Shown: positions 28,767 through 64,000 of the stretch, piece by piece
Position numbering within the stretch: position 1 is the stretch's first letter
How the letters are laid out: each line of letters opens with the position of its first letter
From: a virus
Virus record (IMG/VR): IMGVR_UViG_3300024517_000019
Span: 2,370 to 66,369 of that record
DNA length: 64,000 nt
Reading direction: 5' to 3' (one strand)
Notes under the pieces: model-generated
What the model saw: only the letters and a program-made list of their open reading frames with translations
Databases searched by the model: none
Told to the model about the DNA's origin: nothing
Made by a program: the position numbers and the translations under genes

Positions 28767-29256
28767 GCACCTCACCAAGTCCGCAAGGAATCTCATGACA
28801 AAGCAAAAGCTGGGGGCACTACTCTCCTACGACCGGGATCTTGACAAGGATCAACTTGCCGACAGTCCCTTCGCCGAGCGGTCTGAGATCTTCGGGGCGT
28901 ACAAGCTGTCCGGTGAAGAAGGGCTTTGGCGTAAAGCTTTGGACAAAGAAGAAGATGTTACCGTCGCAATCGACCTTACCTGGCGTCAGCCTCGACGCTT
29001 CGTCAAGCTGACGGATGAAGAGTGTCGCCTTGCCTTCGAAGCTCACGTGGATGGCGACCCTCCGCCCTTTGGACCGTATAAAGGAATTGGGCGTAGTGAG
29101 TTCGCAGAGATTAAGATGCAGGCGGCCATGTCACAGATCATTGGTGGAGGGGTTCCCGATGGCGAAGTACAAGATAGACCCGGAAGTGAGGGCGTCAATA
29201 CTCGCTGGGTATCAGGAGCTGTACGACGAGCTGGAGACAGTGAAGGGACTACCTAA
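28759..29256 (+). CDS. Hypothetical protein
   Basis: ORF coupled to the upstream gene; start estimated. Confidence 0.5.
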   Translation: MAKHLTKSARNLMTKQKLGALLSYDRDLDKDQLADSPFAERSEIFGAYKLSGEEGLWRKALDKEEDVTVAIDLTWRQPRRFVKLTDEECRLAFEAHVDGDPPPFGPYKGIGRSEFAEIKMQAAMSQIIGGGVPDGEVQDRPGSEGVNTRWVSGAVRRAGDSEGTT

Positions 29257-49642: not shown

Positions 49643-51213
49643 CCCCTCTCGTCCTCCGCCCACTGCAAGAGAAGGCAGACCTGCTTGTCAGGCGTGCCAT
49701 CTCCAAGCACCAGCGGGTCGTCCTAGTGGCTCCAACTGGATCTGGCAAACGCTATCTGCTGGTCCATTGGTGCATGGGTGCCTTGAGCAAGGGGAAGCGA
49801 GTCCTGTTCATCACCGACCGTCGCATTCTTGTTAATCAGATGGCAGCCGAGTGTGCCAAGCACTCTGTCCCCTTTGGGATGATCATGGGAAGCGAGCCAA
49901 GGGACGACTCGGCACTGCTACAGATCGCCAGCATCCAGACGCTACGCAGGCGTAAGTACAAGGACATGCCAGACGCTGACTTCATCTGTCATGACGAAGC
50001 TCACAAAGAACCCAAGGCTTGTCAGGAACTGTTTGACCTTCACCCGAAAGCCAAGATCGTTGGCGTCACAGCCACTCCTGTTGGCCCCAAGGGAACGTCC
50101 TTGATTGGCATCTATGACACCGTGGTTGAGGGCATGGTCAACAGCGAACTGCTGGCTGGTGGATGGCTACTACATACCAAATGTTGGACACCCAGCGAGC
50201 CTGACATTGAGGGCGTGACTGTGTCTTCCAGCGGGGAATACAACCAATCACAGCTGGGCAAACGGGTTGAGGAATGCACTGTCTTTGCTGACGTGTTTAA
50301 GCACTGGGAACCTTACCAAAACGAACAGACGATCCTCTTCTCGCCCAAGGTCAAGTTTGCCTACGGGATTGCCGAGCAGTTCAACGACCGTGGAGTCACT
50401 GCCGAGGTGATTGAGGCCGGGACTTCAAGCCAAGATCGTCCCCCCATGTTCGAGCGATTCAACAACCGGGAGACCCGCGTCTTGGTCAGCGTCGATGTCC
50501 TGAGAGAAGGCTTTGACGCTCCGATAGCAAGCGTCGGTATCGACCTTCAGCCGAACAAGCAGTTCAGGACCTATTGGCAAAAGGTTGGCCGAGTGCGACG
50601 TACCTACCCTGGTCAGACCCATGCCACTTGGCTGGACTTCGCTGGTAACTTCTGGCGGTTCTGGCACCCTGATGAAGACCCTGACTGGAAAGAGGTCACC
50701 TCTACCAGAAACATCCAGGATGTTATCGACCAGGTTAAGGGGACCCAGTGTCGAGCGTGTGGCAAAGGCAATGTCTACAAGGGTCAATGTCAGCACTGCG
50801 GCGAGCGGGTTGGTGAGACGAAGAAACCCTGGTCCTGCTCGAAGTGCCACTACAGCCTTTCCCAGTGGGAGAAGATGACTAATGGCAAGTGCCCCAACTG
50901 TGGGCACCCTGTGGGCAAGGCAATCCGGCGAATCAAGATGCAAGACGGCTCACTGAAGGCTGTCTCTGCCGAAGAGCGTGGAAAGAAGCTTAAGTCAAAA
51001 GCAAAGAGCGACTGGGTGGGATGCCTGTTCAAGGCATACCACTCTGACAAGTCGATGAACTTCGCTAGGTGGATATACGAGCAGGACCATGGCCACTGGC
51101 CTTCTCCCGAAGAGACAGGCTGTCCTGACCCACTTAGCTACATGTGGCGGCAATCAGTCGCTGAAGCCTGTCCTTGGGTGGCGAGGGCTGCAAACCGAAA
51201 GAGGCGAGACTGA
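49618..51213 (+). CDS. SF2 DEAD/DEAH helicase with C-terminal Zn ribbons
   Basis: APTGSGK, DEAH, TATP, EGFD, QKVGR and four CxxC pairs. Confidence 0.9.
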   Translation: MPEATAEVAPLVLRPLQEKADLLVRRAISKHQRVVLVAPTGSGKRYLLVHWCMGALSKGKRVLFITDRRILVNQMAAECAKHSVPFGMIMGSEPRDDSALLQIASIQTLRRRKYKDMPDADFICHDEAHKEPKACQELFDLHPKAKIVGVTATPVGPKGTSLIGIYDTVVEGMVNSELLAGGWLLHTKCWTPSEPDIEGVTVSSSGEYNQSQLGKRVEECTVFADVFKHWEPYQNEQTILFSPKVKFAYGIAEQFNDRGVTAEVIEAGTSSQDRPPMFERFNNRETRVLVSVDVLREGFDAPIASVGIDLQPNKQFRTYWQKVGRVRRTYPGQTHATWLDFAGNFWRFWHPDEDPDWKEVTSTRNIQDVIDQVKGTQCRACGKGNVYKGQCQHCGERVGETKKPWSCSKCHYSLSQWEKMTNGKCPNCGHPVGKAIRRIKMQDGSLKAVSAEERGKKLKSKAKSDWVGCLFKAYHSDKSMNFARWIYEQDHGHWPSPEETGCPDPLSYMWRQSVAEACPWVARAANRKRRD

Positions 51214-51214
51214 A

Positions 51215-51499
51215 ATGGACGACAAACTTGAGGTACACGTTAAGGAAGCCGATCTGGTCAAACGGATGATCATGGGCAGGGCAGCAGATAAAGCCGTGTT
51301 TGAATTGACCAGTGACGCCCTTGAGTCAGACACCTTGACTATTTCACTCTCGCAACGAGGGTACAGCGTCAGCGTCAATATTGACTTCGATCAAGCCAGG
51401 GAACTTGGAGCAAAAATCCTAGACCTCAATCTCTGGCACAGGCTAGTCAGAGACAACGATCATAAGCTGATCGACAGCGATCACAATTTGATCACTTAA
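51215..51499 (+). CDS. Hypothetical protein
   Basis: ATG immediately after the helicase stop. Confidence 0.55.
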   Translation: MDDKLEVHVKEADLVKRMIMGRAADKAVFELTSDALESDTLTISLSQRGYSVSVNIDFDQARELGAKILDLNLWHRLVRDNDHKLIDSDHNLIT

Positions 51500-51606
51500 G
51501 GGCTGTTACCGCGTCAAACGATACAGCCCTAACCTGTGAAGGGTCATTACGAGATCACTTCCTCATGCCCCGTGGGTGAAGCGGGGCGACTTTCAAGGAA
51601 GCGACT

Positions 51607-51990
51607 GTGACGGAACACAACGACCGACAACGAAGCTCTCAGCGTGACCTGCAGCTTGTACTGCTGGGGGTCGCCTTCACTAAGGGCGACCGGCAACGGG
51701 TGCTCGATGCGATAACACCTGAGCATTGCTGTGCTGAGATTGGTAAGCTCATGGCGGCGATCAAGGCCAGTGACATTGTCCCAATACGGCAGTGGCTGGA
51801 GGATCATGACACCCCTATTGCTGACGGCAACGATGTCATCCAGTCGCTAATTGACTCGGTGCATCGCTACTGCAAACGGGCCAGCATGAAGAACCTGGCA
51901 TTCGAACTGAACATGGCCAGGATCGAAGATACGCCTGAGCTGATTGAACGGTTGCGTAACATGGCAGATGACCTGGAAGGAACCCTGTGA
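51607..51990 (+). CDS. Hypothetical protein (possible DnaB N-terminal-like)
   Basis: 127-aa helical ORF; the similarity is impressionistic. Confidence 0.45.
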   Translation: MTEHNDRQRSSQRDLQLVLLGVAFTKGDRQRVLDAITPEHCCAEIGKLMAAIKASDIVPIRQWLEDHDTPIADGNDVIQSLIDSVHRYCKRASMKNLAFELNMARIEDTPELIERLRNMADDLEGTL

Positions 51991-52196
51991 AGAGCTTCAT
52001 CATTCTCTCGGACGGAACCTGTGTGAACATGAGGTACGTCACCTCTTTCTACCGAGGTTTCTCGCTGGGGGCTGGTGGTTCGTCAGGCATGGTCCTCACT
52101 GTTCGTGGTAGCTCATACCAGGAAGTCAGAGACCCGGATGATGTGAAGAAGATCCGAAGCTATATCGAAGAACACGAATGGGAGAAAGAAGAATGA
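51987..52196 (+). CDS. Hypothetical protein
   Basis: GTGA-coupled 69-aa ORF. Confidence 0.5.
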   Translation: MKSFIILSDGTCVNMRYVTSFYRGFSLGAGGSSGMVLTVRGSSYQEVRDPDDVKKIRSYIEEHEWEKEE

Positions 52197-52561
52197 GTAC
52201 TCTCGTGACTGAGAAAGACATTGAGACAATGGAAGCCGTCCTCGAAGAGAAGGGGATCGCTGCCTTGGCGAGGATGTCCAATAAACTCAACCACTGGAAA
52301 TGGCCTGGCCAACTGGAAAACCCAGAGCCACCAGAACTTTCCGGCAATACGAGCCGCAGGCGACAGTTAATGGAGTGGATCGAAGAAAGGATCGGTAACC
52401 GAGCAGTGCTGAGGGAGCACAACAGTGACATGAGTGAATTGGAGTTCAACGACTTCTGGCGAGGCACGTTCGAGCATCACGGACCTTCTCGTGATCGACA
52501 CAGGGCAAGAATGATGGCTGAGGCCGAGAAGGAAATAGCGAAAGAGAAATCAAGTGCTTGA
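52193..52561 (+). CDS. Hypothetical protein
   Basis: ATGA-coupled ORF. Confidence 0.55.
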   Translation: MSTLVTEKDIETMEAVLEEKGIAALARMSNKLNHWKWPGQLENPEPPELSGNTSRRRQLMEWIEERIGNRAVLREHNSDMSELEFNDFWRGTFEHHGPSRDRHRARMMAEAEKEIAKEKSSA

Positions 52562-52958
52562 ATTTGGGCCAATCGAACTTGCTGAGTGTCAGGCCAATCA
52601 ACCTGCCTCTGCGACACTTGAAGACTACCAGCAGGCAATGGCGTTTGCGGTAGCCGTATGCAGGCACTGCCATTGGTGGGTCGGTGACATGATGCTTGAG
52701 CTGGAGCGACGGTTTGGCGACCTGAGCACTCAGGCACTACCGATGGACAGTATCAGCCTGGATCAGCTTAACCGGATTAAGGCTGTCTCAAGGCGAGTGC
52801 CCAAGGCCAACAGGAGGGCCGACCTTAGCTGGTATCACCACCAGCAGGTCAGCAGGCTACCGAAGCACCTTCAGCAGAACTGGCTGGAGAAGGCCGCCCT
52901 GGAGGGCTGGAGCAGTAACGAGTTTAGGGTTCAGGTTTCGAAGTTCCTGTCGAGCTGA
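52554..52958 (+). CDS. LmbU-like DNA-binding protein
   Basis: WWVGD..VSRRVP..RRADLSWYHHQQV..WLEKAALEGWS..FR matches the LmbU-family pattern. Confidence 0.65.
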   Translation: MLEFGPIELAECQANQPASATLEDYQQAMAFAVAVCRHCHWWVGDMMLELERRFGDLSTQALPMDSISLDQLNRIKAVSRRVPKANRRADLSWYHHQQVSRLPKHLQQNWLEKAALEGWSSNEFRVQVSKFLSS

Positions 52959-53157
52959 GCTTCTTCTTCCACAGAAGCTGATACGCAATAGCACCCTCCA
53001 AGAGAACCCCGCTCACTCCCGTGAGTAGCTTCTTGAACTCGTCCCCGTCAGTCCAACTGCCAGAGAACGAGAAGATCGCTATGGTGCTCATGATCCCCAT
53101 TCCCATGACGGCGATCAGCATGTCCTTCTTACTGAAGCAGGGCGTGTTCCAGTCCAT
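52924..53157 (-). CDS. Small two-TM membrane protein (holin-like)
   Basis: Two hydrophobic helices and a basic C-terminus. Confidence 0.5.
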   Translation of the reverse strand: MDWNTPCFSKKDMLIAVMGMGIMSTIAIFSFSGSWTDGDEFKKLLTGVSGVLLEGAIAYQLLWKKKLSSTGTSKPEP

Positions 53158-53159
53158 GG

Positions 53160-54170
53160 CTAAACCTCAATTGGATCACTGGGATCGACTGGCGGAATCT
53201 GATTGGTTGCCGGAATGAAGAGCACTCCGTCGATCTCAACCTTGGGATACTCTTGTGGCGGAACGACAGGATCGGTGGGCGGATCTGGGGTGTCCCGTGG
53301 GAACGGGTTGTCTACGAAGTCGTAGTACTCGATCAGCTCGTCCATGCTCTTGTCACGAGGTGGCTGGTAGGGAGCTTCGCCGGTTGAGAACCCGCAGTAG
53401 TGATCCGGGGTCGTGTACGACATGACTGACTTGTGGACGTTCTCTCGCTGGAATTCATGCTCCAGGTTGTTGTTGTGACCGCCTTCGTGGCTCAGTAGCT
53501 GAGTGAAGTCTCGGAGGTTCGCTTCGTAGCTGGAGTCGAGGAAGTGGTCTACCTGGTCACCACAGCTACCGTTGTTGAAGTAGGCATAGCCGATTACGTT
53601 GCCAGGAATGAACTTCATCTTGATGTTGATGTTCGCGTCGTTCACGTCATCAACCAGCTTGTGCAAGATCCCCACTCGCAGATACGTCTCAATGTACAGG
53701 TCTGTGGCGACCGTCATGATCGACTTGCCAGACCAAAGATCGTAGACCTTCTCTTTTGTTCCCCAGACACCAGCGGACACTAGCGAGTCCAAGTCAAAGG
53801 CCGATACCGGACCTTCGAAGTAGTCAGTGAAGCTGTTTCGATTGACGTAGAACGTGGCGACATGGTGATCGGGGAACTCAGGATCACATCCCCTCGGCCA
53901 TGACCCTGAACCTGCTGACCTGGCGAGTATCCTCTTGTGGCTCTGGATCAGCCCTTCGGCCATATCGTCGCCACATTCCAGACAGTGAGCCAAAGCCCCT
54001 GGGTCTACGTAGGCTGCGATCTCAGGGTCACCATGGTCAGGGTGGAAGCACTTGCGATCCTTCACGGCTGCCGTTACCGATGGCGAGGCTGCCACCATGG
54101 CGGTATCCAGGTCGGCCATGGCCACGTTTGGTAAGTGGCCCATGGCCTTCATTAGCTTGTTCTGATTCAT
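53160..54170 (-). CDS. Matrixin/metzincin-like zinc metallopeptidase
   Basis: HEGGHNNNLEH zinc motif, SVMSY Met-turn, VIGYAYF, and a Pro-rich C-terminus. Confidence 0.75.
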   Translation of the reverse strand: MNQNKLMKAMGHLPNVAMADLDTAMVAASPSVTAAVKDRKCFHPDHGDPEIAAYVDPGALAHCLECGDDMAEGLIQSHKRILARSAGSGSWPRGCDPEFPDHHVATFYVNRNSFTDYFEGPVSAFDLDSLVSAGVWGTKEKVYDLWSGKSIMTVATDLYIETYLRVGILHKLVDDVNDANINIKMKFIPGNVIGYAYFNNGSCGDQVDHFLDSSYEANLRDFTQLLSHEGGHNNNLEHEFQRENVHKSVMSYTTPDHYCGFSTGEAPYQPPRDKSMDELIEYYDFVDNPFPRDTPDPPTDPVVPPQEYPKVEIDGVLFIPATNQIPPVDPSDPIEV

Positions 54171-54862
54171 CCCAGAATCCCCAGGATCAGCTTGAGTATC
54201 GTGGCGAAATCGAAGTCTCCACCGTCTGCAAAGACTGCCAGCAGAACCTTGATCAGCCCCTTGAGCTTGATCTTGCCTCCACCACGCCTGGCGATCTTGG
54301 CTGACTGCTTGGCGTCACTGCCTAGTGAATCACCGATCGTCTTTAGGGCAGTGGCGACCTGAGCATTCGTCGTCAGACGGCCTGCTGTCCGTTCTGCGGT
54401 CAGTGCAGCACCAACCCCGGCCCTCCAGTCCTTCCAGGCTGCTTCAGCTCCACGGGCCTTCAGGAAGCTGTCCGTGAGCTTCTTCAGTTGAGCCAATCCC
54501 TCGGCACCCGTTGATTTACCGTCGGCGACCTTGGAACCAACGATTGAATAGATTACGGAGAGGCCTGCCGCGTTCTGTGTCTTCTCCGGGTCCGTCACCT
54601 TCGTCGTCAGGTTTCGGACGGTCTGGCTTAGGCTCGATGGCGACGGGACGACTGGGTCGGTCGGGACGTTTCCGGGTGGGGTAGCGGACAAAAAATCCCA
54701 GGTGTGTCCCCCATTCGCGTCAGTCGTGACGACGATCACCGTGCGGCCTGGTTCCCATTTCTGGGTGTTGATGAGCAGATAGCCCGGCCCTTTGCCTGTT
54801 CCGGCCAGGACACTTGCCGCAAATATGAGGAGCAACGCGAGACTGATGTGCCGTTTCTTCAT
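54167..54862 (-). CDS. Secreted/membrane protein with signal peptide
   Basis: MKKRHISLALLLIFAASVLA signal peptide and a hydrophobic C-terminus. Confidence 0.65.
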   Translation of the reverse strand: MKKRHISLALLLIFAASVLAGTGKGPGYLLINTQKWEPGRTVIVVTTDANGGHTWDFLSATPPGNVPTDPVVPSPSSLSQTVRNLTTKVTDPEKTQNAAGLSVIYSIVGSKVADGKSTGAEGLAQLKKLTDSFLKARGAEAAWKDWRAGVGAALTAERTAGRLTTNAQVATALKTIGDSLGSDAKQSAKIARRGGGKIKLKGLIKVLLAVFADGGDFDFATILKLILGILG

Positions 54863-55038
54863 TGCCTTCTCCTTAGCCTTCTCTTTGGAGTGATTGTCGA
54901 ATCACCTGCTATTCTAAACAGCACTACGCCCGGTTGGCGATTACTTAATTGCCGATCTCTGCTCTGAGACAGCTCGTACCGTAGCAGGCTGCGAGCTGTC
55001 TCTTTTCGCACACATACCCACGTCGCCCGTGAGGCCAG

Positions 55039-55082
55039 TGAAAATCTTTTGGGTTTTCGACCGGGGAATTTGTGGCGGGACC
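55039..55082 (+). promoter_or_regulatory. Phage promoter-like motif copy 4, upstream of the RAMP/pentamer-array locus
   Basis: TGAAAATCTTTTGGGTTTTCGACCGGGGAATTTGTGGCGGGACC; the first 27 nt are identical to copy 3. Confidence 0.7.
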
Positions 55083-55106
55083 GACTGGCGGCGGCACGCT
55101 TTTACG

Positions 55107-55178
55107 GGTCACGTCAGGCACGGCAAGGCTTGCTTAGCCTAGGTGCGGTATGCCAACGGCATGGTATGGAATTTTCAC
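55107..55178 (+). ncRNA. GGY-NN pentamer tract A (putative guide RNA)
   Basis: GGTCA CGTCA GGCAC GGCAA GGCTT GCTTA GCCTA GGTGC GGTAT GCCAAC GGCAT GGTAT, then GGAATTTTCAC. Confidence 0.7.
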
Positions 55179-55192
55179 AAGGGAGAAACGGA

Positions 55193-55861
55193 ATGGACTA
55201 TCGGTTTAAGCTTACGGGGAAAACCCCGCTGATCATGCACGCCGACAACATCGCCGCTGGTGATGAACTCAACGCTTGGCGAAAGGACCCAGCGAACAAG
55301 GACCTGAGCGTAAAGGGGGATGATCGCAGCCCTCCGTGGACCTGGTCCACCTACCTCTACTCAGATGGGGATGTCATCACGGTGCCCTCCGAGACCATCA
55401 TGGCCTGCCTCAGGGACGCCGGGAAAACGGTCAAGATCCAAGGCAACAAGACCTTCAAGTCAGCCACCCAGTCTCAGTTGCTGATCAAAGAGATTGACCT
55501 GCCTCTCTTGGTTGACGGTGCTACTGTAGCGATCGCCGACATCCAAAAGTTGCTCGACAAACCCTTCCCTGAGCAAGCGGCTGGAGTCGAGGAATTCGGG
55601 TTTAGTTTGAATCTGAAACGGGTCAAAGTCGCCAGTTCCAAGAATCTCAGGGTTCGCCCTATTTTCGATACCTGGTCTGTGGAGGGGAACCTGACGGTTC
55701 GAGACGATGCTCTCCTGACCGAGGACAAAGTGAAGCTCCTGTTTCGAATTGCTGGCGAAGAAAAGGGCTTGCTCGATTGGCGGCCTGGAGCACCCTGCCC
55801 AGGTCCGTATGGAACTTTTTCAGTGTCGATCACCAAGGTCTGTTCGGCCGGGGTTAGCTAG
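55193..55861 (+). CDS. Stand-alone Cas7/RAMP-like RNA-binding protein (222 aa)
   Basis: GGGAGA RBS. RAMP hallmarks: N-terminal YRFKLTGKTPLIMH strand, ITVPSETIMACLRDAG helix, RVRPIFDTWSVEG, and C-terminal Gly-rich loop GLLDWRPGAPCPGPYGTFSV. Confidence 0.75.
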   Translation: MDYRFKLTGKTPLIMHADNIAAGDELNAWRKDPANKDLSVKGDDRSPPWTWSTYLYSDGDVITVPSETIMACLRDAGKTVKIQGNKTFKSATQSQLLIKEIDLPLLVDGATVAIADIQKLLDKPFPEQAAGVEEFGFSLNLKRVKVASSKNLRVRPIFDTWSVEGNLTVRDDALLTEDKVKLLFRIAGEEKGLLDWRPGAPCPGPYGTFSVSITKVCSAGVS

Positions 55862-55998
55862 GGCAGGGTGGGCTCTGGTCTGGCATGGTAAGGACTTTAT
55901 AAATCACTTAGGGATTGGGTTCGGCAAGCTAGGCTCCGGTGCGGTGGTGCATGGTGAGTCACGTCATGGCATGTCCGGGTGAGGTAAGGAATTTTTCA
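55837..55998 (+). ncRNA. GGY-NN pentamer tracts B and C (putative guide RNAs)
   Basis: B (55837-55891): GGTCT GTTCG GCCGG GGTTA GCTAG GGCAG GGTGG GCTCT GGTCT GGCAT GGTAA, then linker GGACTTTATAAATCACTTA. C (55913-55987): GATTG GGTTC GGCAA GCTAG GCTCC GGTGC GGTGG TGCAT GGTGA GTCAC GTCAT GGCAT GTCCG GGTGA GGTAA, then GGAATTTTTCAC. Confidence 0.75.
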
Positions 55999-56011
55999 CA
56001 AGGGAGAACAA

Positions 56012-56488
56012 ATGTTCGAGATGAAGTACTACGTCAAAAAGGAAGTTGACCAGCTTATGTCCCTCACTGAGGACATGGAACGAGGCACTCTCGTTACCTA
56101 CGAGGATATTGAGAACCTGATTGGCTTCAACAGGGAAGATTCACCGCAATGGCCAAAGGTCATTCGGCTCTGGCGTAAGAGAATGATGCAAGAACGGGGC
56201 ATCTACCCCAAATCAGAGCGTGGCATAGGCTACAGGCTGCCAGAGGTTGATGACCAGATCGACCACAGCATCACAATGGCCAGGAACTCCCGAAAGCGAC
56301 TGGGGGTGGCTGGTGTCCTCTCTGCCATGATTAGGGACGAGGACCTGGATGAGTACCAGACACGGAGGGTCATTGCAGTTCAGGAAGTGGTGGATGAAAC
56401 TCAATCCAGGTTCAATATCGAGGCAGCCAAGCGGAAAAAATGGTTCTCCGCTCAGCCCAGGCTGCCTCGTCCTGGTGACTCAAGTTAG
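56012..56488 (+). CDS. Accessory protein embedded in the arrays (wHTH-like plus coiled coil)
   Basis: GGGAGA RBS. TLVTYEDIENLIG..SERGIGYRL resembles a winged-helix wing. Confidence 0.7.
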   Translation: MFEMKYYVKKEVDQLMSLTEDMERGTLVTYEDIENLIGFNREDSPQWPKVIRLWRKRMMQERGIYPKSERGIGYRLPEVDDQIDHSITMARNSRKRLGVAGVLSAMIRDEDLDEYQTRRVIAVQEVVDETQSRFNIEAAKRKKWFSAQPRLPRPGDSS

Positions 56489-56676
56489 GCATGGTGTGCT
56501 CCGGTGAGGCTCGCTCCGCCACGCTATGGTGCGGTGTGGTCAGGCATGGTATGGACTTTTCGCAAATCAATCTTGGTTGGATATGGCAAGCTGAGGCATG
56601 TCATGCCAAGGTGAGGCAAGGACTTTTTACGAATCAATTCGGGCACGGTTCGCTTTGGCTCGGTCGTGCTGGGTTC
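56488..56676 (+). ncRNA. GGY-NN pentamer tracts D, E, F (putative guide RNAs)
   Basis: D (56488-56552): GGCAT GGTGT GCTCC GGTGA GGCTC GCTCC GCCAC GCTAT GGTGC GGTGT GGTCA GGCAT GGTAT. E (56575-56619): GGTTG GATAT GGCAA GCTGA GGCAT GTCAT GCCAA GGTGA GGCAA. F (56642-56676): GGCAC GGTTC GCTTT GGCTC GGTCG TGCTG GGTTC. Linkers GGACTTTT..AATCAAT. Confidence 0.75.
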
Positions 56677-56749
56677 GAAATCAACACCGAAACACTTACG
56701 GCCATTGCCGACACCGCAGCCGATGAGGACTGTGGCTGTGGACCTTAAC

Positions 56750-57200
56750 TGCACTTTCCCCATTGACGAAAGGAACCCTGATTAGCCATACTCCCCGACG
56801 TCAAGTCACTAGTGGAAATGACGATCCACTGATGGTGACGGCGATTACAGTTTTGGTATGATTCGGATTCACGAAGGCAAGTCCTGTGCTCTAACACAGG
56901 CAACTGTACCGCCGCCGATCATCGTGGATTTCGTCCCCACGCTCTGATCGGCATTTTTTATGGACAGCGAACACAGGCCCTGACTGCCAAAGGGCCAACA
57001 GTGCAGGGGCCTACCGTTGCGACGACAAGCCTGCATGGACAAATCCGATATCCCGTGAAAGTTGTGGTTGAAACCCACGGGACGGGGGCTGTGATTTCAA
57101 TTGATCCCAGCAGCCCTGATTAGATTCGGTGCCGAGGACCCTTCGTTGGGCGAATGCGAGGCTTTATATCGCGGTGAGCCCTAGGGACCCTTATGCACAC
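56750..57200 (+). ncRNA. Candidate large structured RNA
   Basis: No convincing ORF; at least seven consecutive stem-loops. Confidence 0.3.
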
Positions 57201-57369
57201 TCGTCCCCTGTTACGTTCTGTGTCCGATACAAGTGTGACGCTTGGTGGTGAGGCGTGTACCTCGCTGTCCTTTTAAGAAACCACTGGCGAAAGGAACCGA
57301 CGATGGGATCGTCTCGTCGCACCGTAAGAAAGGCCCTGCCATCAGAGCAGCGGAGAAACTGGAGAAATC

Positions 57370-57567
57370 ATGAAGGTTGAGTACAAGGGGATGGTGGTCC
57401 TGGATGACGACGAGCCAGGACTGGGGATCAGTAACGGCAAGCTGACTGTTGGTGCTGGGGATGAGGGCAATGAGTGCCTGGTTGAGTTCACTGCTCAAGA
57501 GACAGACATCATCAGGGACATGCTGCTATCGCTGGAAGGGAGGAAGCAATGGACACAGAGCACATAG
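57370..57567 (+). CDS. Hypothetical protein
   Basis: GGAGA RBS. Confidence 0.55.
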   Translation: MKVEYKGMVVLDDDEPGLGISNGKLTVGAGDEGNECLVEFTAQETDIIRDMLLSLEGRKQWTQST

Positions 57568-57833
57568 AGTTCGCCATGGGACTGTGCGACCTCTACGCCA
57601 GGGAGAAGAAAACGAATTGCACTTTTTGCATTGCAGGCAAATCTTTCACGCAACACTTCATCAAGAAGTTCGGGAGGCACAAGAGGTACGAATTGAGTGG
57701 TTGGAGCAGGGACATGCGAGCTGTCGTGGGCCATCAGCAAGGCCTCACAGACGAGAACGGCTACAGGTGGCGTTACCTGTGCCCATTGCACCTGAAGATG
57801 ATCCTCAGGCAGTACCTGGAGAAGCAACCATGA
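57549..57833 (+). CDS. CD.Y/CP paralogue family member 1
   Basis: LCDLY..LCPLHLKMILRQYLEK. Confidence 0.6.
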   Translation: MDTEHIEFAMGLCDLYAREKKTNCTFCIAGKSFTQHFIKKFGRHKRYELSGWSRDMRAVVGHQQGLTDENGYRWRYLCPLHLKMILRQYLEKQP

Positions 57834-58120
57834 TGACCAGGGAGCAAGTGGAGTACGTCATCACACGGTGCGACCAGTACATCAAGGCCAGGCACAAGAC
57901 CGTACGTGGCTGCTGCTTTGGAACCGGCGACAGACTGAGCCTGACCGGCAGCCTTGCCGTCAAGTTCGGGACACGTCCAGGTCTCTCATGGAGCTACGCC
58001 CTAGGCAGCGTCATCAGGACTGAGTGCCAGGTTCACGGGTCCTGGCGGGACATGTGCCCCATTCACCTGAAAGAGATCCTTACTAAGTACCTGGAGAAGA
58101 CACTGGAGGAGAAACTGTGA
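57830..58120 (+). CDS. CD.Y/CP paralogue family member 2
   Basis: RCDQY..MCPIHLKEILTKYLEK. Confidence 0.6.
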   Translation: MMTREQVEYVITRCDQYIKARHKTVRGCCFGTGDRLSLTGSLAVKFGTRPGLSWSYALGSVIRTECQVHGSWRDMCPIHLKEILTKYLEKTLEEKL

Positions 58121-58491
58121 AGGTGAAAATGATTGAAGGCATGAGGCCAGTTCCCTGCCTCCTGTGTGCCGGTGACAAAACATACAGAGGCTGGGAAATG
58201 ACAGGCCCAACTGGGGCCGTGTTCCTCTGCGACTATTGCATGGTTTATTCAGTAGAGGGGATTGGACAGATCAACGGGTGCGACACGAAAAGCACCAGGG
58301 CCGGCGTGAAAGCCAAAGCAAACACCTCTCCCCACAAGTGCGGCTTCTGCGAACTGACCAGCGAAATCACCTGGACTGTTGGCAAAGATTCTTTCGCATT
58401 AACCGCCTGCCTTGCCTGTGTGAAGACTATGAACGAACAGGTTTACGCTCAGAGCAAGGGATACCAAATGATTCCGAGGGCCGACTCATGA
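58117..58491 (+). CDS. Cys-rich Zn-finger protein
   Basis: Four CxxC pairs. Confidence 0.55.
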   Translation: MKVKMIEGMRPVPCLLCAGDKTYRGWEMTGPTGAVFLCDYCMVYSVEGIGQINGCDTKSTRAGVKAKANTSPHKCGFCELTSEITWTVGKDSFALTACLACVKTMNEQVYAQSKGYQMIPRADS

Positions 58492-58847
58492 CCGACACCC
58501 TAAGCCTGGCGGAAACCAAAGCAGCGATCAGAAGTTGCGACCACTACGCAAAGGCAGGTGAGAAGGACTTGTCGAAGTGGCACGTAGGAACCAAGCCAAT
58601 CAGGCTAGATCCAATCGGTGCCATCCTGAGGTCACGTGGTGTCAAGCTGGATATCGTCGGCGAATCGTATGAACCCAGCATGCCAGAGTCTCACGAGAAC
58701 ACAGAGTTGGGTGTGGACGGGTCACTGTTCATGACACTGTCAGGTGTGGAAATGCCAAAGCCGGGTGACTGGATGGACAGTTGCCCTCTGCTGGTCAAGC
58801 AATACCTGGTTAAGCATCTAAACAAACTCAAGGGAGAGCACCTTTGA
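58488..58847 (+). CDS. CD.Y/CP paralogue family member 3
   Basis: LSLAETKAAIRSCDHY..SCPLLVKQYL. Confidence 0.6.
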   Translation: MTDTLSLAETKAAIRSCDHYAKAGEKDLSKWHVGTKPIRLDPIGAILRSRGVKLDIVGESYEPSMPESHENTELGVDGSLFMTLSGVEMPKPGDWMDSCPLLVKQYLVKHLNKLKGEHL

Positions 58848-59290
58848 CAAATTCAAATTCCGAAAGGCGACGATGGGAAGCCAGGCCCAAGCAGAAGCCG
58901 CAACCGCTAACACTGGCGGAAACGAAGGTGGCGATTGAGGCCTGTGATAGCTACATCAGTGCAGGCCACATCAACTTCAGGAAACACACTGCAATCACAG
59001 GCATGGTGGAGACAGGACAGCCTGGGGTAGCCGTCTACCTGATGTACGGGTCGAAGTTTGAGACCCATGGCCGAAATGGCGAACTGCTGGAGCTGGTCTT
59101 CACTGGACAACAGGCAAAAGACAGGTTCCACGACGGACCTAACTTCTCATCTGTTATGTGTACGGCACTAGAAATTGGCGGCATGGAGGATGATAGGAGT
59201 GGTCCTTCCTTCTACATCCGTCGCTGCCCTGTCGAAGTCAAGGACGCCCTGCTGAAGTACAAGCACATTACGTTCGGGGAGAACTCATGA
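58844..59290 (+). CDS. CD.Y/CP paralogue family member 4
   Basis: LTLAETKVAIEACDSY..RCPVEVKDALLKY. Confidence 0.6.
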   Translation: MTNSNSERRRWEARPKQKPQPLTLAETKVAIEACDSYISAGHINFRKHTAITGMVETGQPGVAVYLMYGSKFETHGRNGELLELVFTGQQAKDRFHDGPNFSSVMCTALEIGGMEDDRSGPSFYIRRCPVEVKDALLKYKHITFGENS

Positions 59291-59685
59291 GCGAGAAATA
59301 CCCTCTCACTGAGTGTGAGGTGCATGCCTGCCTCATGTCTGCCGAGTTGTTCATTCAGCACAAGAAGCCGGACACGAGGGAGGTCCTGTTGGTCAGTGGC
59401 GACCTGAGCACCATCTACCCACCAGGTGCCGTTGCCAAGCTCCGTGGCTACACCTTTGGGTTTAATGCGGCTGGCATACTGATGACCACCAATAAGCCCG
59501 ACGACACCGAAGACCACCTCATCTTCGACGACATTGCCAACGCCCTGGCTCAGGGAGGAGCAAGCTGGATCGTGGGCTGGGCTCACATGACCCCACAGGC
59601 CTTCAAAGAGGCCATGCTCGCCTACAAAGAGATCGTCAAACGAAAGGGGAAGCGAAAACATGTCACTAACACTCAGGGAGGTTAA
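59287..59685 (+). CDS. CD.Y/CP paralogue family member 5 (divergent)
   Basis: LTECEVHACLMSAELF..MTPQAFKEAMLAYK. Confidence 0.55.
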   Translation: MSEKYPLTECEVHACLMSAELFIQHKKPDTREVLLVSGDLSTIYPPGAVAKLRGYTFGFNAAGILMTTNKPDDTEDHLIFDDIANALAQGGASWIVGWAHMTPQAFKEAMLAYKEIVKRKGKRKHVTNTQGG

Positions 59686-60049
59686 TGCTTGCCTCAAGTC
59701 CTGCGATCACTACATCAACGCAAGGCAGCTAAGCATGTCAGATGACGTTGCTTTGAAGGATGACATTGAGACAGCAGAAGCGGCACTCGCAGTGGCGATC
59801 ATGAGGGGCAGAGAGATGAGGGTCGAATGCTGGTCTGTCACGTCCACAGGCAGGAATCAATGCAATGACGTGTTGAGCCTGGCCTACAAGGACACACTGG
59901 ACGCACTGCTCGCTGGTGGGCTGATCCGTGATGACGCTGCTGGCTGGTACTGCGAATGCCCGGTGCTACTGCAGCAGTGCTTTCGCAAGTACAAGGACAA
60001 ACTACTCAAGGAAAGGAGAAGGAATGCTAACGCCTCAGGTCTTCGTTGA
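59660..60049 (+). CDS. CD.Y/CP paralogue family member 6
   Basis: LTLREVNACLKSCDHY..ECPVLLQQCFRKYK. Confidence 0.6.
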   Translation: MSLTLREVNACLKSCDHYINARQLSMSDDVALKDDIETAEAALAVAIMRGREMRVECWSVTSTGRNQCNDVLSLAYKDTLDALLAGGLIRDDAAGWYCECPVLLQQCFRKYKDKLLKERRRNANASGLR

Positions 60050-60190
60050 CAGCCAGGTCGTGGAGGTGCATCACTCAGGACGATCGATGGCTTCCCTAAA
60101 ACCTCCTGGCTTGTTCAATGCCCCGTGTACCTCAAGCAAACAATGAGACGCTACAGAGACAACCTCATCGCAAAGGAGAAGGAATGCCGA
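60024..60190 (+). pseudogene. Frameshifted, internally deleted 7th paralogue
   Basis: RBS plus MLTPQ start in one frame; the family C-terminus WLVQCPVYLKQTMRRYRDNL is in a different frame. Confidence 0.5.
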
Positions 60191-60393
60191 AAAGGAACGT
60201 CTTCAACCCTGAAGGAAACGAGTGGACCGACTCAACCATCATTGGACAGCTAAGGCGACTGGAGGCCTTCTGGCCTACCGACCTGACGCTCAAGGTTGAT
60301 CCCGCTACTGGTAGACTCAAAGTGGTGAGCAAGGTGGTCACCGAAGAGTTCCCGAACACTGAGATCTACCGAATACCAATGGAGAAATGGTGA
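60184..60393 (+). CDS. Hypothetical protein
   Basis: AAGGAG RBS, ATG 60184. Confidence 0.5.
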   Translation: MPKRNVFNPEGNEWTDSTIIGQLRRLEAFWPTDLTLKVDPATGRLKVVSKVVTEEFPNTEIYRIPMEKW

Positions 60394-60617
60394 TGCTATT
60401 CGCTGACCTGACCGGTGCCCCCAGAGAAGAACTACTGGAGAAAATCAACCAGCTCGACGAGGACCTAACTAAGCTCAAGGTCAGCGTCACCAAGATGCGT
60501 GAAGCTCAGCAAGGGTTCTTCAGGGACAAGTCACCGCAATGGCTCAGTGAAGCAAAGAAGCTTGAACGTGAGGTGGACGATCTACTACACCCAGACCAGC
60601 AGCAGAGGCTGTTTTGA
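60387..60617 (+). CDS. Hypothetical coiled-coil protein
   Basis: VTKMREAQQGFF..LSEAKKLEREVD. Confidence 0.55.
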   Translation: MVMLFADLTGAPREELLEKINQLDEDLTKLKVSVTKMREAQQGFFRDKSPQWLSEAKKLEREVDDLLHPDQQQRLF

Positions 60618-61054
60618 ACTCAATCAATTTCACAATCATCGGTCGCCCTCAGCAAAGAGGCTCCAAGGTCCCAGTCAGAACTAAGGACGGCAGGGTCTTC
60701 ATTAGGGACGCCAACCTCAAATCCAAGGACTGGATGACCTCAGTTAGGCAGGTGGCAGGGGAGGCATGGGACGGGAAGTCGCTCATAACGTCCCCTGTTC
60801 GCCTCTCAGCGACGTTTTACTTCAAGAGACCGAAGTCACACTACAGGACCGCAAAGGGCCGTACGGACGAACTCAAGGGCTCTGCTCCCCGGCTGCATGC
60901 TCAGTCACCTGACCTGGCCAAGCTGATTCGCTGCCTGGAAGACGCTCTCACAGGGGTAATCTGGCAGGATGACAAGCTGGTCAGACTGTACGCCGTCTGC
61001 AGCAGGGAGTGGACAACTGAGTCAGAGAGGGCCGAAGTCGCAATAGTCTGGTAA
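60614..61054 (+). CDS. rusA: RusA-family Holliday junction resolvase
   Basis: FTIIGRPQQRGS, FYFKRPKSH and PDLAKLIRCLEDALTGVIWQDD. Confidence 0.85.
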   Translation: MNSINFTIIGRPQQRGSKVPVRTKDGRVFIRDANLKSKDWMTSVRQVAGEAWDGKSLITSPVRLSATFYFKRPKSHYRTAKGRTDELKGSAPRLHAQSPDLAKLIRCLEDALTGVIWQDDKLVRLYAVCSREWTTESERAEVAIVW

Positions 61055-61086
61055 TCAAGGAAGACGCAACTCAAGGAAGAAACTAC

Positions 61087-61263
61087 ATGAACTACCTATA
61101 CGCAGCACTGCTTCTCTACTCGGCAAGCTGCATTCTGTTCTTCGGACTGTGTGTTCACATGAAGAAGAACTCTCACCACATGAGGAAAACCACCGTCAGA
61201 TCAATGGCCCTCGGATCACTGGTCTGGCCCATACTCGTCCTGTTCGCCTGGTTTGGAGACTAA
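61087..61263 (+). CDS. Small membrane protein (58 aa)
   Basis: Hand-translated, with two hydrophobic segments and an AAGGA RBS. Confidence 0.45.
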   Translation: MNYLYAALLLYSASCILFFGLCVHMKKNSHHMRKTTVRSMALGSLVWPILVLFAWFGD

Positions 61264-61265
61264 CA

Positions 61266-61967
61266 ATGCGGTACTACCCTGGCGTCCGCATGCCTGACAT
61301 CCTGACCATCGAAGAATTCAACGCTATCACCAAGCACCTGAAGGAAAAGATCGCCCATAACGGACACGACCTCACAAGGCGGTCAATGTGGACTCAGCTG
61401 GCAATCTTCAGGTTGGGTGCCTGTTGCGGGATCAGGCCACAAGAGATGCCCTTGCTCAGGATCAAGGACATCTGCCTAGAGGGCGACTACCCCTGTGTCT
61501 TGGTCAGAAAGGAGGTAGCCAAGACACGCAAGGAACGACGGGTGCCGCTGTGGTGGGACGTTGATACCTTCATCGACCTGGGCAAGATCAAGGCCAGGTG
61601 GGAGAAGGAAGGCCTCACCGAAGACGACATCTTCCTCAGGAGCCAGCATGGCCTCCCTCAGAAAAGATACTACAAGACTTGGACAGGGCTCATGTGGAAG
61701 CTGTTCTGCTCATGTCAGAACAGGTTCCTGGGAGGCGGGCTCGGCAAGGACAAGCCACATGCACCATCCTGCCGGGTCACCAGGATCAAGAGGCCCTACG
61801 TAGGCAGACACACGTTCGCCAGCATGGCCCTGGCAGCAGGCAAGACGATCGCTGAAGTCAGGGACGCCATGGGCCACTCGAACATCCAAACCACCTCCAT
61901 CTACCTACACGTTCCCCTCGTCTCTAAACCGACGATGGGGAGCATATTCAGATACAAGGAAGACTAA
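61266..61967 (+). CDS. Tyrosine recombinase (catalytic domain only)
   Basis: GIRPQE (R), AKTRKER (K), YVGRHTFAS (R), MGHSNIQTTSIY (H, Y). Confidence 0.85.
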   Translation: MRYYPGVRMPDILTIEEFNAITKHLKEKIAHNGHDLTRRSMWTQLAIFRLGACCGIRPQEMPLLRIKDICLEGDYPCVLVRKEVAKTRKERRVPLWWDVDTFIDLGKIKARWEKEGLTEDDIFLRSQHGLPQKRYYKTWTGLMWKLFCSCQNRFLGGGLGKDKPHAPSCRVTRIKRPYVGRHTFASMALAAGKTIAEVRDAMGHSNIQTTSIYLHVPLVSKPTMGSIFRYKED

Positions 61968-62290
61968 TGATTGCACCCCAAGAGACTGTCATGACGGTCA
62001 TGCTGGGCATAGACCCAGTGGAGCAGGTCTTGCAAGTCAGAGACATCAAGATCGACGGTGACTCAATCGTTGACGCCACTGACCCACCAGGCACGCCCTA
62101 CGTCAGGGAGTTCAAGTTCGAAGCAGGGATGGCTGAGAAGCTACACAAGTGGTTCGTCGCCTGTGGGATGACCAAGTCAGATGCAGAGGGGTCGGTCAGG
62201 GCCTTCGGGCACACCATGGACGAGACACTCAATGACCTCGTCGATGCCTCAGATGGTGTCTCAACCGACAACGCTGACTGTGTTGACTAA
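61967..62290 (+). CDS. Hypothetical protein
   Basis: TAATG coupling to the recombinase. Confidence 0.55.
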   Translation: MIAPQETVMTVMLGIDPVEQVLQVRDIKIDGDSIVDATDPPGTPYVREFKFEAGMAEKLHKWFVACGMTKSDAEGSVRAFGHTMDETLNDLVDASDGVSTDNADCVD

Positions 62291-62623
62291 GTTATCGAAC
62301 ACGTCAAACGGCTCCCAGTCGCTGTACCAGGTGCCTGTGTCAACGATGTAGACCTGAAGGTGCCACTTGCCTGGCCTGTCCAGGTCAGCAGCAATCGTCA
62401 CGTACTCAAGTATCCCGTCCGTGCCACCGCTGGTCAGAACAGCGGTCTTCTTCACCACTTCCTCAGGGACCACGTTCTGGGTGATCGGGTTCCGCCAGTG
62501 AGGCTTGCGGAAGTGTATCTGCAGTACCGTAGCACCGGAGATGTCCACTGCCGTCGTACCGTCTTGTACGGTGCGGCGGAAGGTGGTGCCAATGTCGCCA
62601 ACGTGTATTTCGTCTTTGGACAT
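62261..62623 (-). CDS. BppU N-terminal-like tail/baseplate protein
   Basis: HVGDIGT..AVDISGAT..DGILEYVTIAADLDRPGKWHLQ. Confidence 0.65.
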   Translation of the reverse strand: MSKDEIHVGDIGTTFRRTVQDGTTAVDISGATVLQIHFRKPHWRNPITQNVVPEEVVKKTAVLTSGGTDGILEYVTIAADLDRPGKWHLQVYIVDTGTWYSDWEPFDVFDNLVNTVSVVG

Positions 62624-62625
62624 AG

Positions 62626-62844
62626 TTAACGCTCTATCGTGTCAGCCTGGGTCTGTTCGATGTAGCTGATCCCAGCCCTGGTCTTGTCGATGTAGCTGGT
62701 GTCAGCCCTGACCTGATCGATGTAGCTAATGCCTGCGATTATCTCCAGGGCGGCAACTGGAGTGGCGACACTGTCTCCAACTCCGGCAATGCCGAGTTCC
62801 TTGCGCAGTTGCATCAGGATCGCTGGTAGTTTCTTGACGAGCAT
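62626..62844 (-). CDS. Small protein with three 10-aa repeats
   Basis: SYIDQVRADT, SYIDKTRAGI, SYIEQTQADT. Confidence 0.55.
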   Translation of the reverse strand: MLVKKLPAILMQLRKELGIAGVGDSVATPVAALEIIAGISYIDQVRADTSYIDKTRAGISYIEQTQADTIER

Positions 62845-64000
62845 CAGGTGCTATCTCGCGTGGCGACTTTCTTCCAGGTTCGAACGACGGATGCGTGGGT
62901 CATCGTGGCGACCACCAAGACGGCTTCGCCTAACGTGATTCGATTCGTGGCTTCGTCGTACTTGTACGTTTCGGTTGACCCGATTTCAGTCATCGCGGTT
63001 GCCGCGACTAGGTCCGTCCCATCGGTTCGCTTGATGACTTGGATCTTCGGCAATGTGATTCCGGTTGTGATCGGAACTCCGTCGAGGAACCATATCACGT
63101 TGTATTCATCCTGCGTGTTGGTTTGGTCGCGAGTGAATTCGATGTCAGCGTGATAGATGCCGGTGTTGATGGTGTCTATGTCTGCCGGGAGGTTCGCGGC
63201 ATCTAGTTCAGCTAACCGAGCTTCGGTTGCAACGGAGGCAAGGGCAGCGGAATCGGTTCCCCGCATCGCCGTTGTCGGTATTGCTGCAATGTCAGTGGGT
63301 AAATTCGCGGCATCCAACTCGGCCAATCTTGCCTCAGTGGCAACTGACGCGAGAGCCGCTGAGTCAGTTCCACGCATTGCGGTTGTGGGGATGGCCGCAA
63401 TATCGGTAGGCAAGTTTGCTGCATCGAGTTCGGCTAATCTTGCTTCGGTCGCGACGCTTGCCAATGCAGCGGAATCCGTACCTCTCATCGCGGTTGTTGG
63501 AATTGCGGCTATCTCAGTAGCGATGATTCCGAATGAACCAGCGGCAACGTGATCGGCCTGAGCTTCGTCCCAAACCGTATCGGCTACGCTTGCCGCAGTC
63601 GGTGGAGTCGTGGTATTCCAATCGCCTTTGCCATCTAATGCCGAAGCGGTGATACCAGCGGCAGTGAGCCAATTCGCTGGAATGGTTGGAAGGTTCGTTA
63701 ACGTGGTTACAGTGGCAACCGTGTCAGCGGCAGGATCAAAGTATGACGCGGCAACAAGTGTGCGAGCGTTAAACTCGGATACAGTTGGAACGTCTGCTAG
63801 ATCAGCGGAAATAGATGCTCCGATCGGTGCCCCGATACGTGCAAAGTTGTCACCGGTTTGAACCGTATGTCCGACAAGTGATCCAACTGAGCCTGTGACG
63901 TTCCCGTCTACGTTCCCTGCGACCGAACCTACCGCTCCGGTTACCGACCCAACAGCACCTGTCACACTTCCGACCGCACCCGTTACCGATCCAACTGAGC
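62844..64000 (-). CDS. Repetitive tail fibre/virion protein (5' end outside window)
   Basis: VTGAVGS heptad repeats, three 37-aa repeats and an ADTVWDE motif. The frame is open to the window edge. Confidence 0.7.
   Translation of the reverse strand, partial: SVGSVTGAVGSVTGAVGSVTGAVGSVAGNVDGNVTGSVGSLVGHTVQTGDNFARIGAPIGASISADLADVPTVSEFNARTLVAASYFDPAADTVATVTTLTNLPTIPANWLTAAGITASALDGKGDWNTTTPPTAASVADTVWDEAQADHVAAGSFGIIATEIAAIPTTAMRGTDSAALASVATEARLAELDAANLPTDIAAIPTTAMRGTDSAALASVATEARLAELDAANLPTDIAAIPTTAMRGTDSAALASVATEARLAELDAANLPADIDTINTGIYHADIEFTRDQTNTQDEYNVIWFLDGVPITTGITLPKIQVIKRTDGTDLVAATAMTEIGSTETYKYDEATNRITLGEAVLVVATMTHASVVRTWKKVATRDST

Follow-up and report, generated by a model that had tools for sequence, protein, structure and literature searches.

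We find that the locus at positions 55100-56690 of a 64,000-nucleotide (nt) stretch of viral DNA (IMG/VR record IMGVR_UViG_3300024517_000019, positions 2,370 to 66,369; hereafter, the window) is most probably a VIPR system, which comprises a Vipr protein of the RAMP type, a winged-helix-like accessory protein and six guide RNAs, or vrRNAs (A to F), and works by the mechanism proposed below. It follows from this identity that the conserved "handle" which an earlier note on this DNA had recognized at the 3' end of the repeat tracts is the vrRNA 3' tail, together with the spacer between the units of a VIPR locus. The system, the pentamer code and the conserved 3' tail are already known from preprints dated April to October 2026. 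What is added here are details of a variant, namely a tail without a hairpin, a GGR stop (R, purine), a linker made of two parts, and the fusion of the tail to the ribosome-binding site.

VIPR was first described in 2026 preprints as an RNA-guided DNA-silencing system (bioRxiv 10.64898/2026.04.26.720920). Its parts are an ancestral RAMP protein of ~20 kDa (Vipr), an accessory gene (vap) and the vrRNAs; vipr and vap form an operon, found mostly on phages and aimed at competing mobile elements (10.64898/2026.04.26.720920). A vrRNA consists of 9-16 YNNGG repeats (Y, pyrimidine) and ends in an invariable 3' "tail"; pairing with double-stranded DNA is through the variable NN bases, one base being skipped per unit, and the vap product of some of the seven published VIPR types is predicted to bind DNA (10.64898/2026.04.26.720920). 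In the system of phage SUSP1, each pentamer is occupied by one Vipr protomer, which sequesters the GG and the next pyrimidine, and the guides, RNAs of ~100 nt, are co-purified with Vipr (10.64898/2026.04.26.720920, 10.64898/2026.04.26.720927). The pyrimidine pocket of Vipr "sterically excludes purines", and the 3' end of the SUSP1 vrRNA is capped by a pseudoknot (10.64898/2026.04.26.720927). Complexes from Pseudomonas fulva are without this pseudoknot marker (10.64898/2026.04.26.720927), and the structure of the tail may therefore not be defining for VIPR. In a later preprint, a shared tail is treated as the feature by which a vrRNA becomes competent to form a complex with Vipr (10.64898/2026.10.15.759431). 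VIPR arrays can be recovered by their 5-nt period (10.64898/2026.10.21.760802).

The identification of the locus relies on its RNA tracts and on both of its proteins. Six tracts of YNNGG pentamers, with GG at positions 4-5, flank vipr; they contain 7 to 16 pentamers each, and all are on the plus strand. The period-5 GG signal is specific to the locus: in a scan of the whole window, 38 of the 40 best 60-nt segments fell within 55091-55175, 55826-56025 or 56476-56695, and nothing comparable was found on the opposite strand. The earlier note had counted five tracts. These five are borne out, but a sixth and weaker one, tract F, follows tract E; it does not have the GGAMTTT ending (M, A or C), and its 7 pentamers are below the published range of 9-16.

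The first gene, vipr (55193-55861, plus strand), encodes a 222-residue RAMP protein (P0002) that matches phrog_4652 (E-value 1.1e-17) and has no match in Pfam. This protein is related to the Viprs already described, which are small RAMP proteins with an RRM core, a G-loop and a thumb. Specifically, a tblastn comparison aligns it with positions 28495-29043 of phiSUSP1 (E-value 8e-8, 94% of the query covered), while pairwise alignment with SUSP1 Vipr gives 26% identity (E-value 4e-15), with HAD and DWRP motifs common to both. The AF2 model of P0002 is confident (pLDDT 94.3), and its best structural matches are the Csm3/Cas7 RAMP subunits of type III and type VII CRISPR complexes (E-values 2.5e-5 to 1e-3, TM-scores 0.4-0.5). 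In the Vipr alignment, H16 and W196-R197-P198 are invariant, and D195 is found in at least 90% of the sequences (G-rich C-terminal loop). A large protein collection contains 78 unnamed relatives, the query itself counted. A further 189 were found in IMG/VR, and 80 of the corresponding loci (L001-L080, from marine and environmental phages) were fetched for comparison; their Vipr proteins are 39-51% identical. In 79 of these 80 loci there are strong period-5 GG tracts on the gene strand, most of them immediately adjacent to the gene; on the opposite strand, any such signal is confined to 5 of the 80.

The second gene, vap (56012-56488, plus strand), adjoins vipr and encodes a 158-residue accessory protein (P0001) that combines a winged-helix-like domain with long helices. 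Searching the fetched loci with tblastn, we found relatives of vap just downstream of vipr in 31 of the 80. The model of this protein is also confident (pLDDT 93.3), but the resemblance to DNA-binding proteins is weak: the best structural matches are winged-helix DNA-binding domains of the OmpR/MarR type, with E-values of 0.03-0.3. There was no match to a Pfam family, and a word-indexed search for homologues returned only vap itself. The modeled winged-helix-like fold would agree, if only weakly, with the "predicted DNA-binding vap" of some VIPR types.

The contig (a single one of 66,369 nt, marine) is that of a phage: protein scans revealed a large terminase, a helicase and an integrase, alongside ParB-like proteins. 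The locus does not fit class 1 CRISPR-Cas, in that there is neither a repeat-spacer array nor a set of adaptation and processing genes, and that the repeat period is 5 nt. That is, no cas1, cas2, cas6 or cas10 was found among the 20 window proteins scanned, and no Rfam match to a CRISPR direct repeat in 50000-64000; in this same interval no Rfam family was matched at E ≤ 1. A CsrA/Hfq sponge, a TRAP-like attenuator, a G-quadruplex array, and iterons or packaging sites were likewise dropped, given the homology to Vipr and the VIPR preprints.

On reading positions 54500-57500, we found every string from which the earlier note had assembled the handle. GGA starts at 55168, 55892, 55988, 56553 and 56620. 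The tracts end in GGCAT-GGTAT (A and D), GGCAT-GGTAA (B), GGTGA-GGTAA (C) or GGTGA-GGCAA (E), and GGA(A/C)TTT follows in each case. AATCACT is found at 55902-55908, and AATCAAT at 56565-56571 and 56632-56638. Ahead of the two genes, TTTTCACAAGGGAGAA forms an exact 16-nt repeat (55172-55187 and 55993-56008), with the ATG codons at 55193 and 56012. The motif GGYAWGGAMTTT has 5 matches in the window, all of them on the plus strand and inside the locus; in 100 shuffles the mean number of matches was 0.06, and 5 was never reached. A conserved tail is thus present in five of the six units. The notions that the tracts are guide RNAs loaded by the RAMP protein, and that a conserved 3' element caps each guide, hold up as well: the former through the match to published VIPR, the homology to SUSP1 Vipr and the Cas7/Csm3-like fold, and the latter in that this element is the published vrRNA "tail".

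The units are arranged as follows, all on the plus strand. At 55100-55112 there is a linker-like element (a T-run, then TCAC) with no tract upstream of it, whose TCAM motif is at 55109-55112; the segment 55100-55123 is 79% identical to the region of the E-F linker, at 56625-56648. Tract A (55104-55169) contains ~11-13 pentamers, with full GG in 9 of 13, and is the only tract of the window to bear a tail hairpin of canonical form (55150-55162), with a stem of 5 bp and an AAC loop. Its tail is fused to the vipr leader (55168-55192), which reads GGAATTTT, then CACAA, then the Shine-Dalgarno sequence GGGAGA at 55181-55186; the last pentamer is 23 nt from the ATG. Inside the last codons of vipr, directly 5' of tract B, is another linker-like element (GTATGGAACTTTTT ... 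TCAC, 55807-55833), of which 55807-55818 is 92% identical to the tail motif. Tract B (55834-55893, ~12 pentamers) overlaps the vipr stop codon and is followed by the B-C linker (55892-55908), i.e., a GGACTTT tail and then AATCACT. Tract C (55909-55989) has 16 pentamers, 10 of them with full GG, and its tail is fused to the vap leader (55988-56011), with the Shine-Dalgarno sequence GGGAGA at 56002-56007 and 22 nt between the last pentamer and the ATG. Tract D (56485-56554; 14 pentamers, 10 with full GG) starts at the vap stop codon, with TCAA upstream at 56480-56483, and leads into the D-E linker (56553-56571), which consists of the tail GGACTTTT and AATCAAT. Tract E (56572-56621) has ~9-10 pentamers, with full GG in 6 of 10, and is followed by the E-F linker (56620-56638), with the tail GGACTTTTT and again AATCAAT. 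The terminal unit, vrRNA F (56639-56686), is short and degenerate: 7 pentamers (56639-56673), 5 of them with full GG, no GGAMTTT, and then AAATCAAC.

The tail also resembles part of the vipr gene itself. The codons for a conserved C-terminal motif of the protein (…P-Y-G-T-F…), at 55807-55820, read GTATGGAACTTT, which is nearly identical to the vrRNA tail GTATGGAATTTT. From this likeness, the tail of this phage may be derived from, or co-constrained with, the 3' end of vipr.

The junction between tract and tail is a switch from GG-pyrimidine to GG-purine. Among the relatives of the window, an internal GG is followed by a pyrimidine 3616 times out of 3849 (94%), and the last GG by a purine at 160 of the 217 unique tract ends that were called automatically; in the window, A follows the last GG in five of the six units. 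These counts come from a home-made tract caller that joins long in-phase arrays together and also gives some false calls in GC-rich open reading frames (ORFs), so the totals of 217 and 238 contain noise. Because the pyrimidine pocket of Vipr excludes purines (10.64898/2026.04.26.720927), we infer that GG-purine stops the Vipr filament, and that the 3' boundary of the guide is defined in this way here, without RNA structure.

The part of the linker beyond this junction is better divided in two than read as one continuous 3' handle, as had been suggested. The GGAMTTT part is the tail. AATCAMT, in contrast, is better taken as a 5' element of the next vrRNA, because TCAM is found directly 5' of all six tracts, including A, B (55830-55833) and D, i.e., those preceded by TCAM despite having no tract upstream. 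The whole string from the T-run to TCAC is also present 5' of A and B. Where a gene follows the tail, the AATCAMT half is replaced by the Shine-Dalgarno sequence.

In the related loci, the usual tail is a hairpin of 4-5 bp with a WAY triloop (W, A or T), straight after the last pentamer. In a set of 42 unique tails, selected by the WAY triloop alone, 31 are fully paired, compared with 13.7% after random re-pairing of the arms; 14 different stems occur, and their two middle positions covary. The window keeps this hairpin in unit A only, and units B-E have a short U-rich string; a weak pairing, GUGAGG with UUUU(U)CAC, is possible in C and E only. In a quick tree with a midpoint root, the window Vipr falls in a well-supported clade in which 17 of 22 rows have hairpin tails, while the other loci with tails of the GGATTTTT type (L078 and L080) are in a different clade and have no hairpins; the tail classes in the tract survey and in the annotation of this tree are crude. 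Judging from these sequences, the tail in the window would be a derived form that no longer has a hairpin. Because the window, in the hairpin clade, and L078 and L080, in the other one, are separate on the tree, the hairpin was probably lost more than once.

The earlier note also proposed that individual guides are released from one polycistronic RNA. The support for a common transcript is indirect. The five sequencing runs listed as containing the sequence are all DNA metagenomes, with no RNA run among them. The linkers between units are only 15-18 nt long, and no promoter-like or terminator-like site was found in them, in a scan for sigma-70-type sites only, which may not be the type used by the host. 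Two of the tracts, B and D, have their starts within an ORF or at its end. Further downstream, at 56914-56960 on the plus strand, there is one terminator-like hairpin followed by A and six T (-24.3 kcal/mol, z = -3.1), and here the transcription unit is likely to end; the terminator scan did not report this hairpin, whose loop exceeds the length that the scan allows. The ~220 nt between the last tract and this hairpin (56690-56910) contain no convincing ORF and show no pentamer periodicity. Another strong hairpin, with perfect 11-bp arms, a 15-nt loop and then TTTT (54966-55006, plus strand; -28.3 kcal/mol, z = -5.3), is found in the divergent intergenic region, ~100 nt 5' of the first tract. 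It is terminator-like on the plus strand, yet there is no plus-strand gene upstream of it; it may be the upstream boundary of the VIPR transcription unit, or an attenuator or operator.

In the mechanism that we propose, a single transcript would run from ~55010, i.e., past the hairpin at 54966-55006, to ~56960. Vipr would coat each tract up to the GGA stop, where the purine could not enter the pyrimidine pocket, and a U-rich unpaired stretch (A/C, TTTT, then YRC) would be left bare between the protected tracts. This bare linker would be cut by a host endonuclease of the RNase E type, or by Vipr itself; RNase E prefers A/U-rich single strands, a preference that the linker matches. Exonucleases would then trim the ends back to the filament, and the units would thus be released from the operon-length transcript. 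The AATCAMT half would go with the 5' side of the next vrRNA. In the gene-proximal copies, in which the Shine-Dalgarno sequence replaces AATCAMT, vipr and vap would be translated either from the RNA downstream of the cut or from an uncut precursor.

Neither a processing enzyme nor autoregulation is described in the texts of the VIPR preprints that were searched; the sole relevant use of "processed" in those texts is in a figure legend on staggered arrays. The supplements (type tables, tail logos) may already show the tails of this clade. Further indirect support for a common transcript comes from the SUSP1 effector plasmid, in which vrRNA1 and the vipr coding sequence were on one cloned fragment, in vectors with inducible promoters (10.64898/2026.04.26.720920).

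Several observations weigh against the proposed reading of the locus. First, no stable or shared fold was found in the window tails, across ten folded segments (z-scores of -1.75 to +1.5, mostly near 0), so that the role published for the tail may not apply here. Second, only 5-10 pentamers per tract have the full GG, and F has no tail; some of the units may be decaying. Third, no purine follows at 57 of the 217 automatically called tract ends, some of these calls being spurious. Fourth, internal promoters of another type may exist, as the promoter scan was limited to sigma-70-type sites. Lastly, a tract upstream of vipr is missing from 25 of the 80 related loci.

The fusion of tails to translation leaders was assessed across the same 80 loci. 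In the window, 11-12 nt separate the last pentamer from the Shine-Dalgarno sequence in both genes. Among the relatives, the nearest upstream tract ends 20-58 nt before the vipr ATG in 48 loci (mostly 31-36 nt), 61-76 nt before it in four, and more than 150 nt before it in two, while one locus is cut by the end of its contig. Given the 25 loci with no upstream tract, this arrangement is common but not obligatory. The spacings in the window (23 and 22 nt) are at the short end because the hairpin is absent. Many vap genes have the same tract-before-gene arrangement as vipr. U-rich leaders with ...CAC... 5' of the Shine-Dalgarno sequence are also found in L001, L021 and L078, and the strings made of tail plus leader are homologous.

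This arrangement raises the question of autoregulation, which the earlier note had suggested for protein loaded on tracts A and C. Vipr filaments on these tracts would block the 30S ribosomal subunit, or trigger a cleavage that destabilizes the mRNA, and the amounts of Vipr and Vap would thereby be matched to that of free vrRNA. We consider this possible, though on balance unlikely. In its favor, the last pentamer is 22-23 nt from the two ATG codons and 11-12 nt from the Shine-Dalgarno sequences, and the spacing in the 48 loci in which a vrRNA adjoins vipr is narrow. Moreover, five loci without a full upstream vrRNA (L003, L005, L006, L012 and L019) have two pentamers (…CATGG CAAGG A…) in the vipr leader nonetheless. 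In those five leaders the pentamers are followed by a strong hairpin and a T6 run, which resemble a terminator or attenuator and are ~10 nt before the Shine-Dalgarno sequence; these elements are ~95 nt upstream of vipr, near positions 2905-3000 of the locus in L003, L005, L006 and L019, and near 2170-2265 in L012. There is also a precedent in TRAP, which blocks translation upon binding to leader repeats spaced 5-6 nt apart. On the other hand, the spacing of 31-58 nt in most relatives is at or beyond the usual footprint of the 30S subunit, and between a quarter and a third of the loci, namely the same 25 of 80, have no upstream tract to be bound. In SUSP1, ~105 nt separate the end of the repeat tract from the vipr ATG, and ~80 nt separate the tail from it. 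Compact co-transcription, in addition, explains the nearness equally well.

A more specific version of this idea, to which we likewise give a low probability, is that the leader vrRNA is a sensor of dosage. Because vrRNAs A and C are the 5' untranslated regions of vipr and vap, a filament that reaches the GGA stop could mature the guide and, at the same time, shut off or uncouple the translation of its own mRNA. If this were true, the locus would possess a built-in feedback that fixes the ratio of protein to guide, and the U-rich tail without a hairpin would be a minimal form, in which the protein alone sets the 3' end of the guide.

Alternatively, the shared string could be mainly a translation leader, i.e., a U-rich enhancer plus a Shine-Dalgarno sequence, that was copied as the units duplicated, so that the copies in the array are decaying and have no role. 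U-rich stretches ahead of Shine-Dalgarno sequences are common enhancers, and the exact 16-nt identity of the two leaders suggests a recent duplication or conversion. However, GGAMTTT is kept in the array copies that no gene follows (3 of 5), U-rich segments after the hairpin are kept in the array linkers of distant relatives (e.g., in ~10 units of L015), and the AATCAMT half is conserved where the Shine-Dalgarno sequence is absent. We therefore judge this explanation to be very improbable. Similarly improbable is that each vrRNA is a transcription unit of its own, with promoter or terminator signals rather than a processing site in the linker. The SUSP1 locus does have a clear sigma-70 promoter 5' of vrRNA1, and vap is separated by a terminator from the array downstream of it; the host here may also use another type of promoter. 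Against this, a linker of 15-18 nt cannot accommodate both a promoter and a start site, the linkers contain no promoter-like or terminator-like site in the sigma-70-type scan, no hairpin stands ahead of the U-runs, and the starts of tracts B and D coincide with the last part or the very end of an ORF. The release of individual vrRNAs from a common transcript remains the reading that we favor.

The related loci also show other arrangements. Some, such as L015, contain CRISPR-like arrays, in which a conserved element of ~30 nt separates one variable pentamer tract from the next. In 20 related loci, Rfam detected no ribozymes, antisense RNAs of the C4 type being the only matches; accordingly, the layout with interspersed hammerheads, known from other VIPR types, was not seen in this clade. 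These C4 and c4-2 antisense RNAs (immunity of the P1/P7 type) are within a few kb of VIPR, at 5806-5900 in L026 (65.1 bits) and 2284-2353 in L001 (44.1 bits), and both scores are above the gathering threshold. Uninterrupted in-phase runs of 62-197 pentamers, which end in …CAAGGAACAAGG… and have no hairpin, occur in L070 (1931-2933), L074 (9-649), L075 (3683-4068) and L030 (3660-3980), and may be what the preprint calls "staggered arrays". In phiSUSP1 (L081), a conserved element of ~35 nt is found 5' of each vrRNA tract (1270-1315, 2545-2580, 2690-2730 and 2835-2870), and a string resembling it is present after the vrRNA1 tail. Because the published mature RNAs of ~100 nt would exclude this element, it may serve in processing or as part of a promoter. 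Elsewhere on the window contig, the minus strand carries two very large ORFs, at 2-9082 (more than 3027 codons, open at the window edge) and at 10550-14572 (1340 codons).

The handle itself re-finds a published feature, the vrRNA tail. The excision of vrRNAs, and the balance between protein and guide, are absent from the preprint text that was searched, and the locus described here bears on both as a compact natural case: its tail is cut down to a purine "stop" and a U-run, its units are 15-18 nt apart, and two of its tails run into ribosome-binding sites. Both the simple boundary rule that it suggests, from GGY to GGR, and its minimal tail could be of use in designing shorter engineered vrRNAs. 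The locus also supplies concrete constructs for the questions of processing and feedback, and the details of this variant deserve study at the bench.

In comparison with known systems, the locus is closest in plan to the VIPR systems of SUSP1 and the Pseudomonas fulva prophage, with which it shares a small RAMP protein homologous to SUSP1 Vipr, the order vipr-then-vap and carriage by a phage. As in SUSP1, YNNGG vrRNAs on the sense strand are found upstream and in a downstream array, and a conserved element stands 3' of each tract. It differs in that the tail is ~8-18 nt long, U-rich and unfolded, rather than, as in SUSP1, a hairpin/pseudoknot of ~40 nt; in that the units are 15-18 nt apart and two tracts overlap the ends of ORFs; in that the tail runs directly into both Shine-Dalgarno sequences, as opposed to the ~80 nt from tail to vipr ATG in SUSP1; and in the extra pair of vrRNAs between vipr and vap. 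Its Vipr protein, moreover, is only 26% identical to that of SUSP1. With L001-L080, the window shares the same protein family and the same layout of tract, gene and tract, but most of those loci carry the tail hairpin that is restricted to unit A here. In the trp leader of Bacillus, a multimer of TRAP reads G-containing motifs spaced 5-6 nt apart, and can block a nearby Shine-Dalgarno sequence; TRAP is, however, a closed 11-mer ring of unrelated fold, not an open filament, and has no guide function, so that the analogy extends to autoregulation only. Compared with the crRNAs of class 1 CRISPR systems, the period is 5 nt with a fixed GGY, versus 6 nt with no fixed sequence; the repeats themselves make up the guide; and both the repeat-spacer array and, among the 20 proteins scanned, cas1, cas2, cas6 and cas10 are missing. 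There are likenesses too: in both cases a RAMP backbone protein, here with a fold matching Csm3, polymerizes on the guide, and a conserved element flanks the variable part. In type I and type III systems, each CRISPR repeat is shared between two guides, as the 3' handle of the first and the 5' handle of the second, much as the two halves of the linker would do here.

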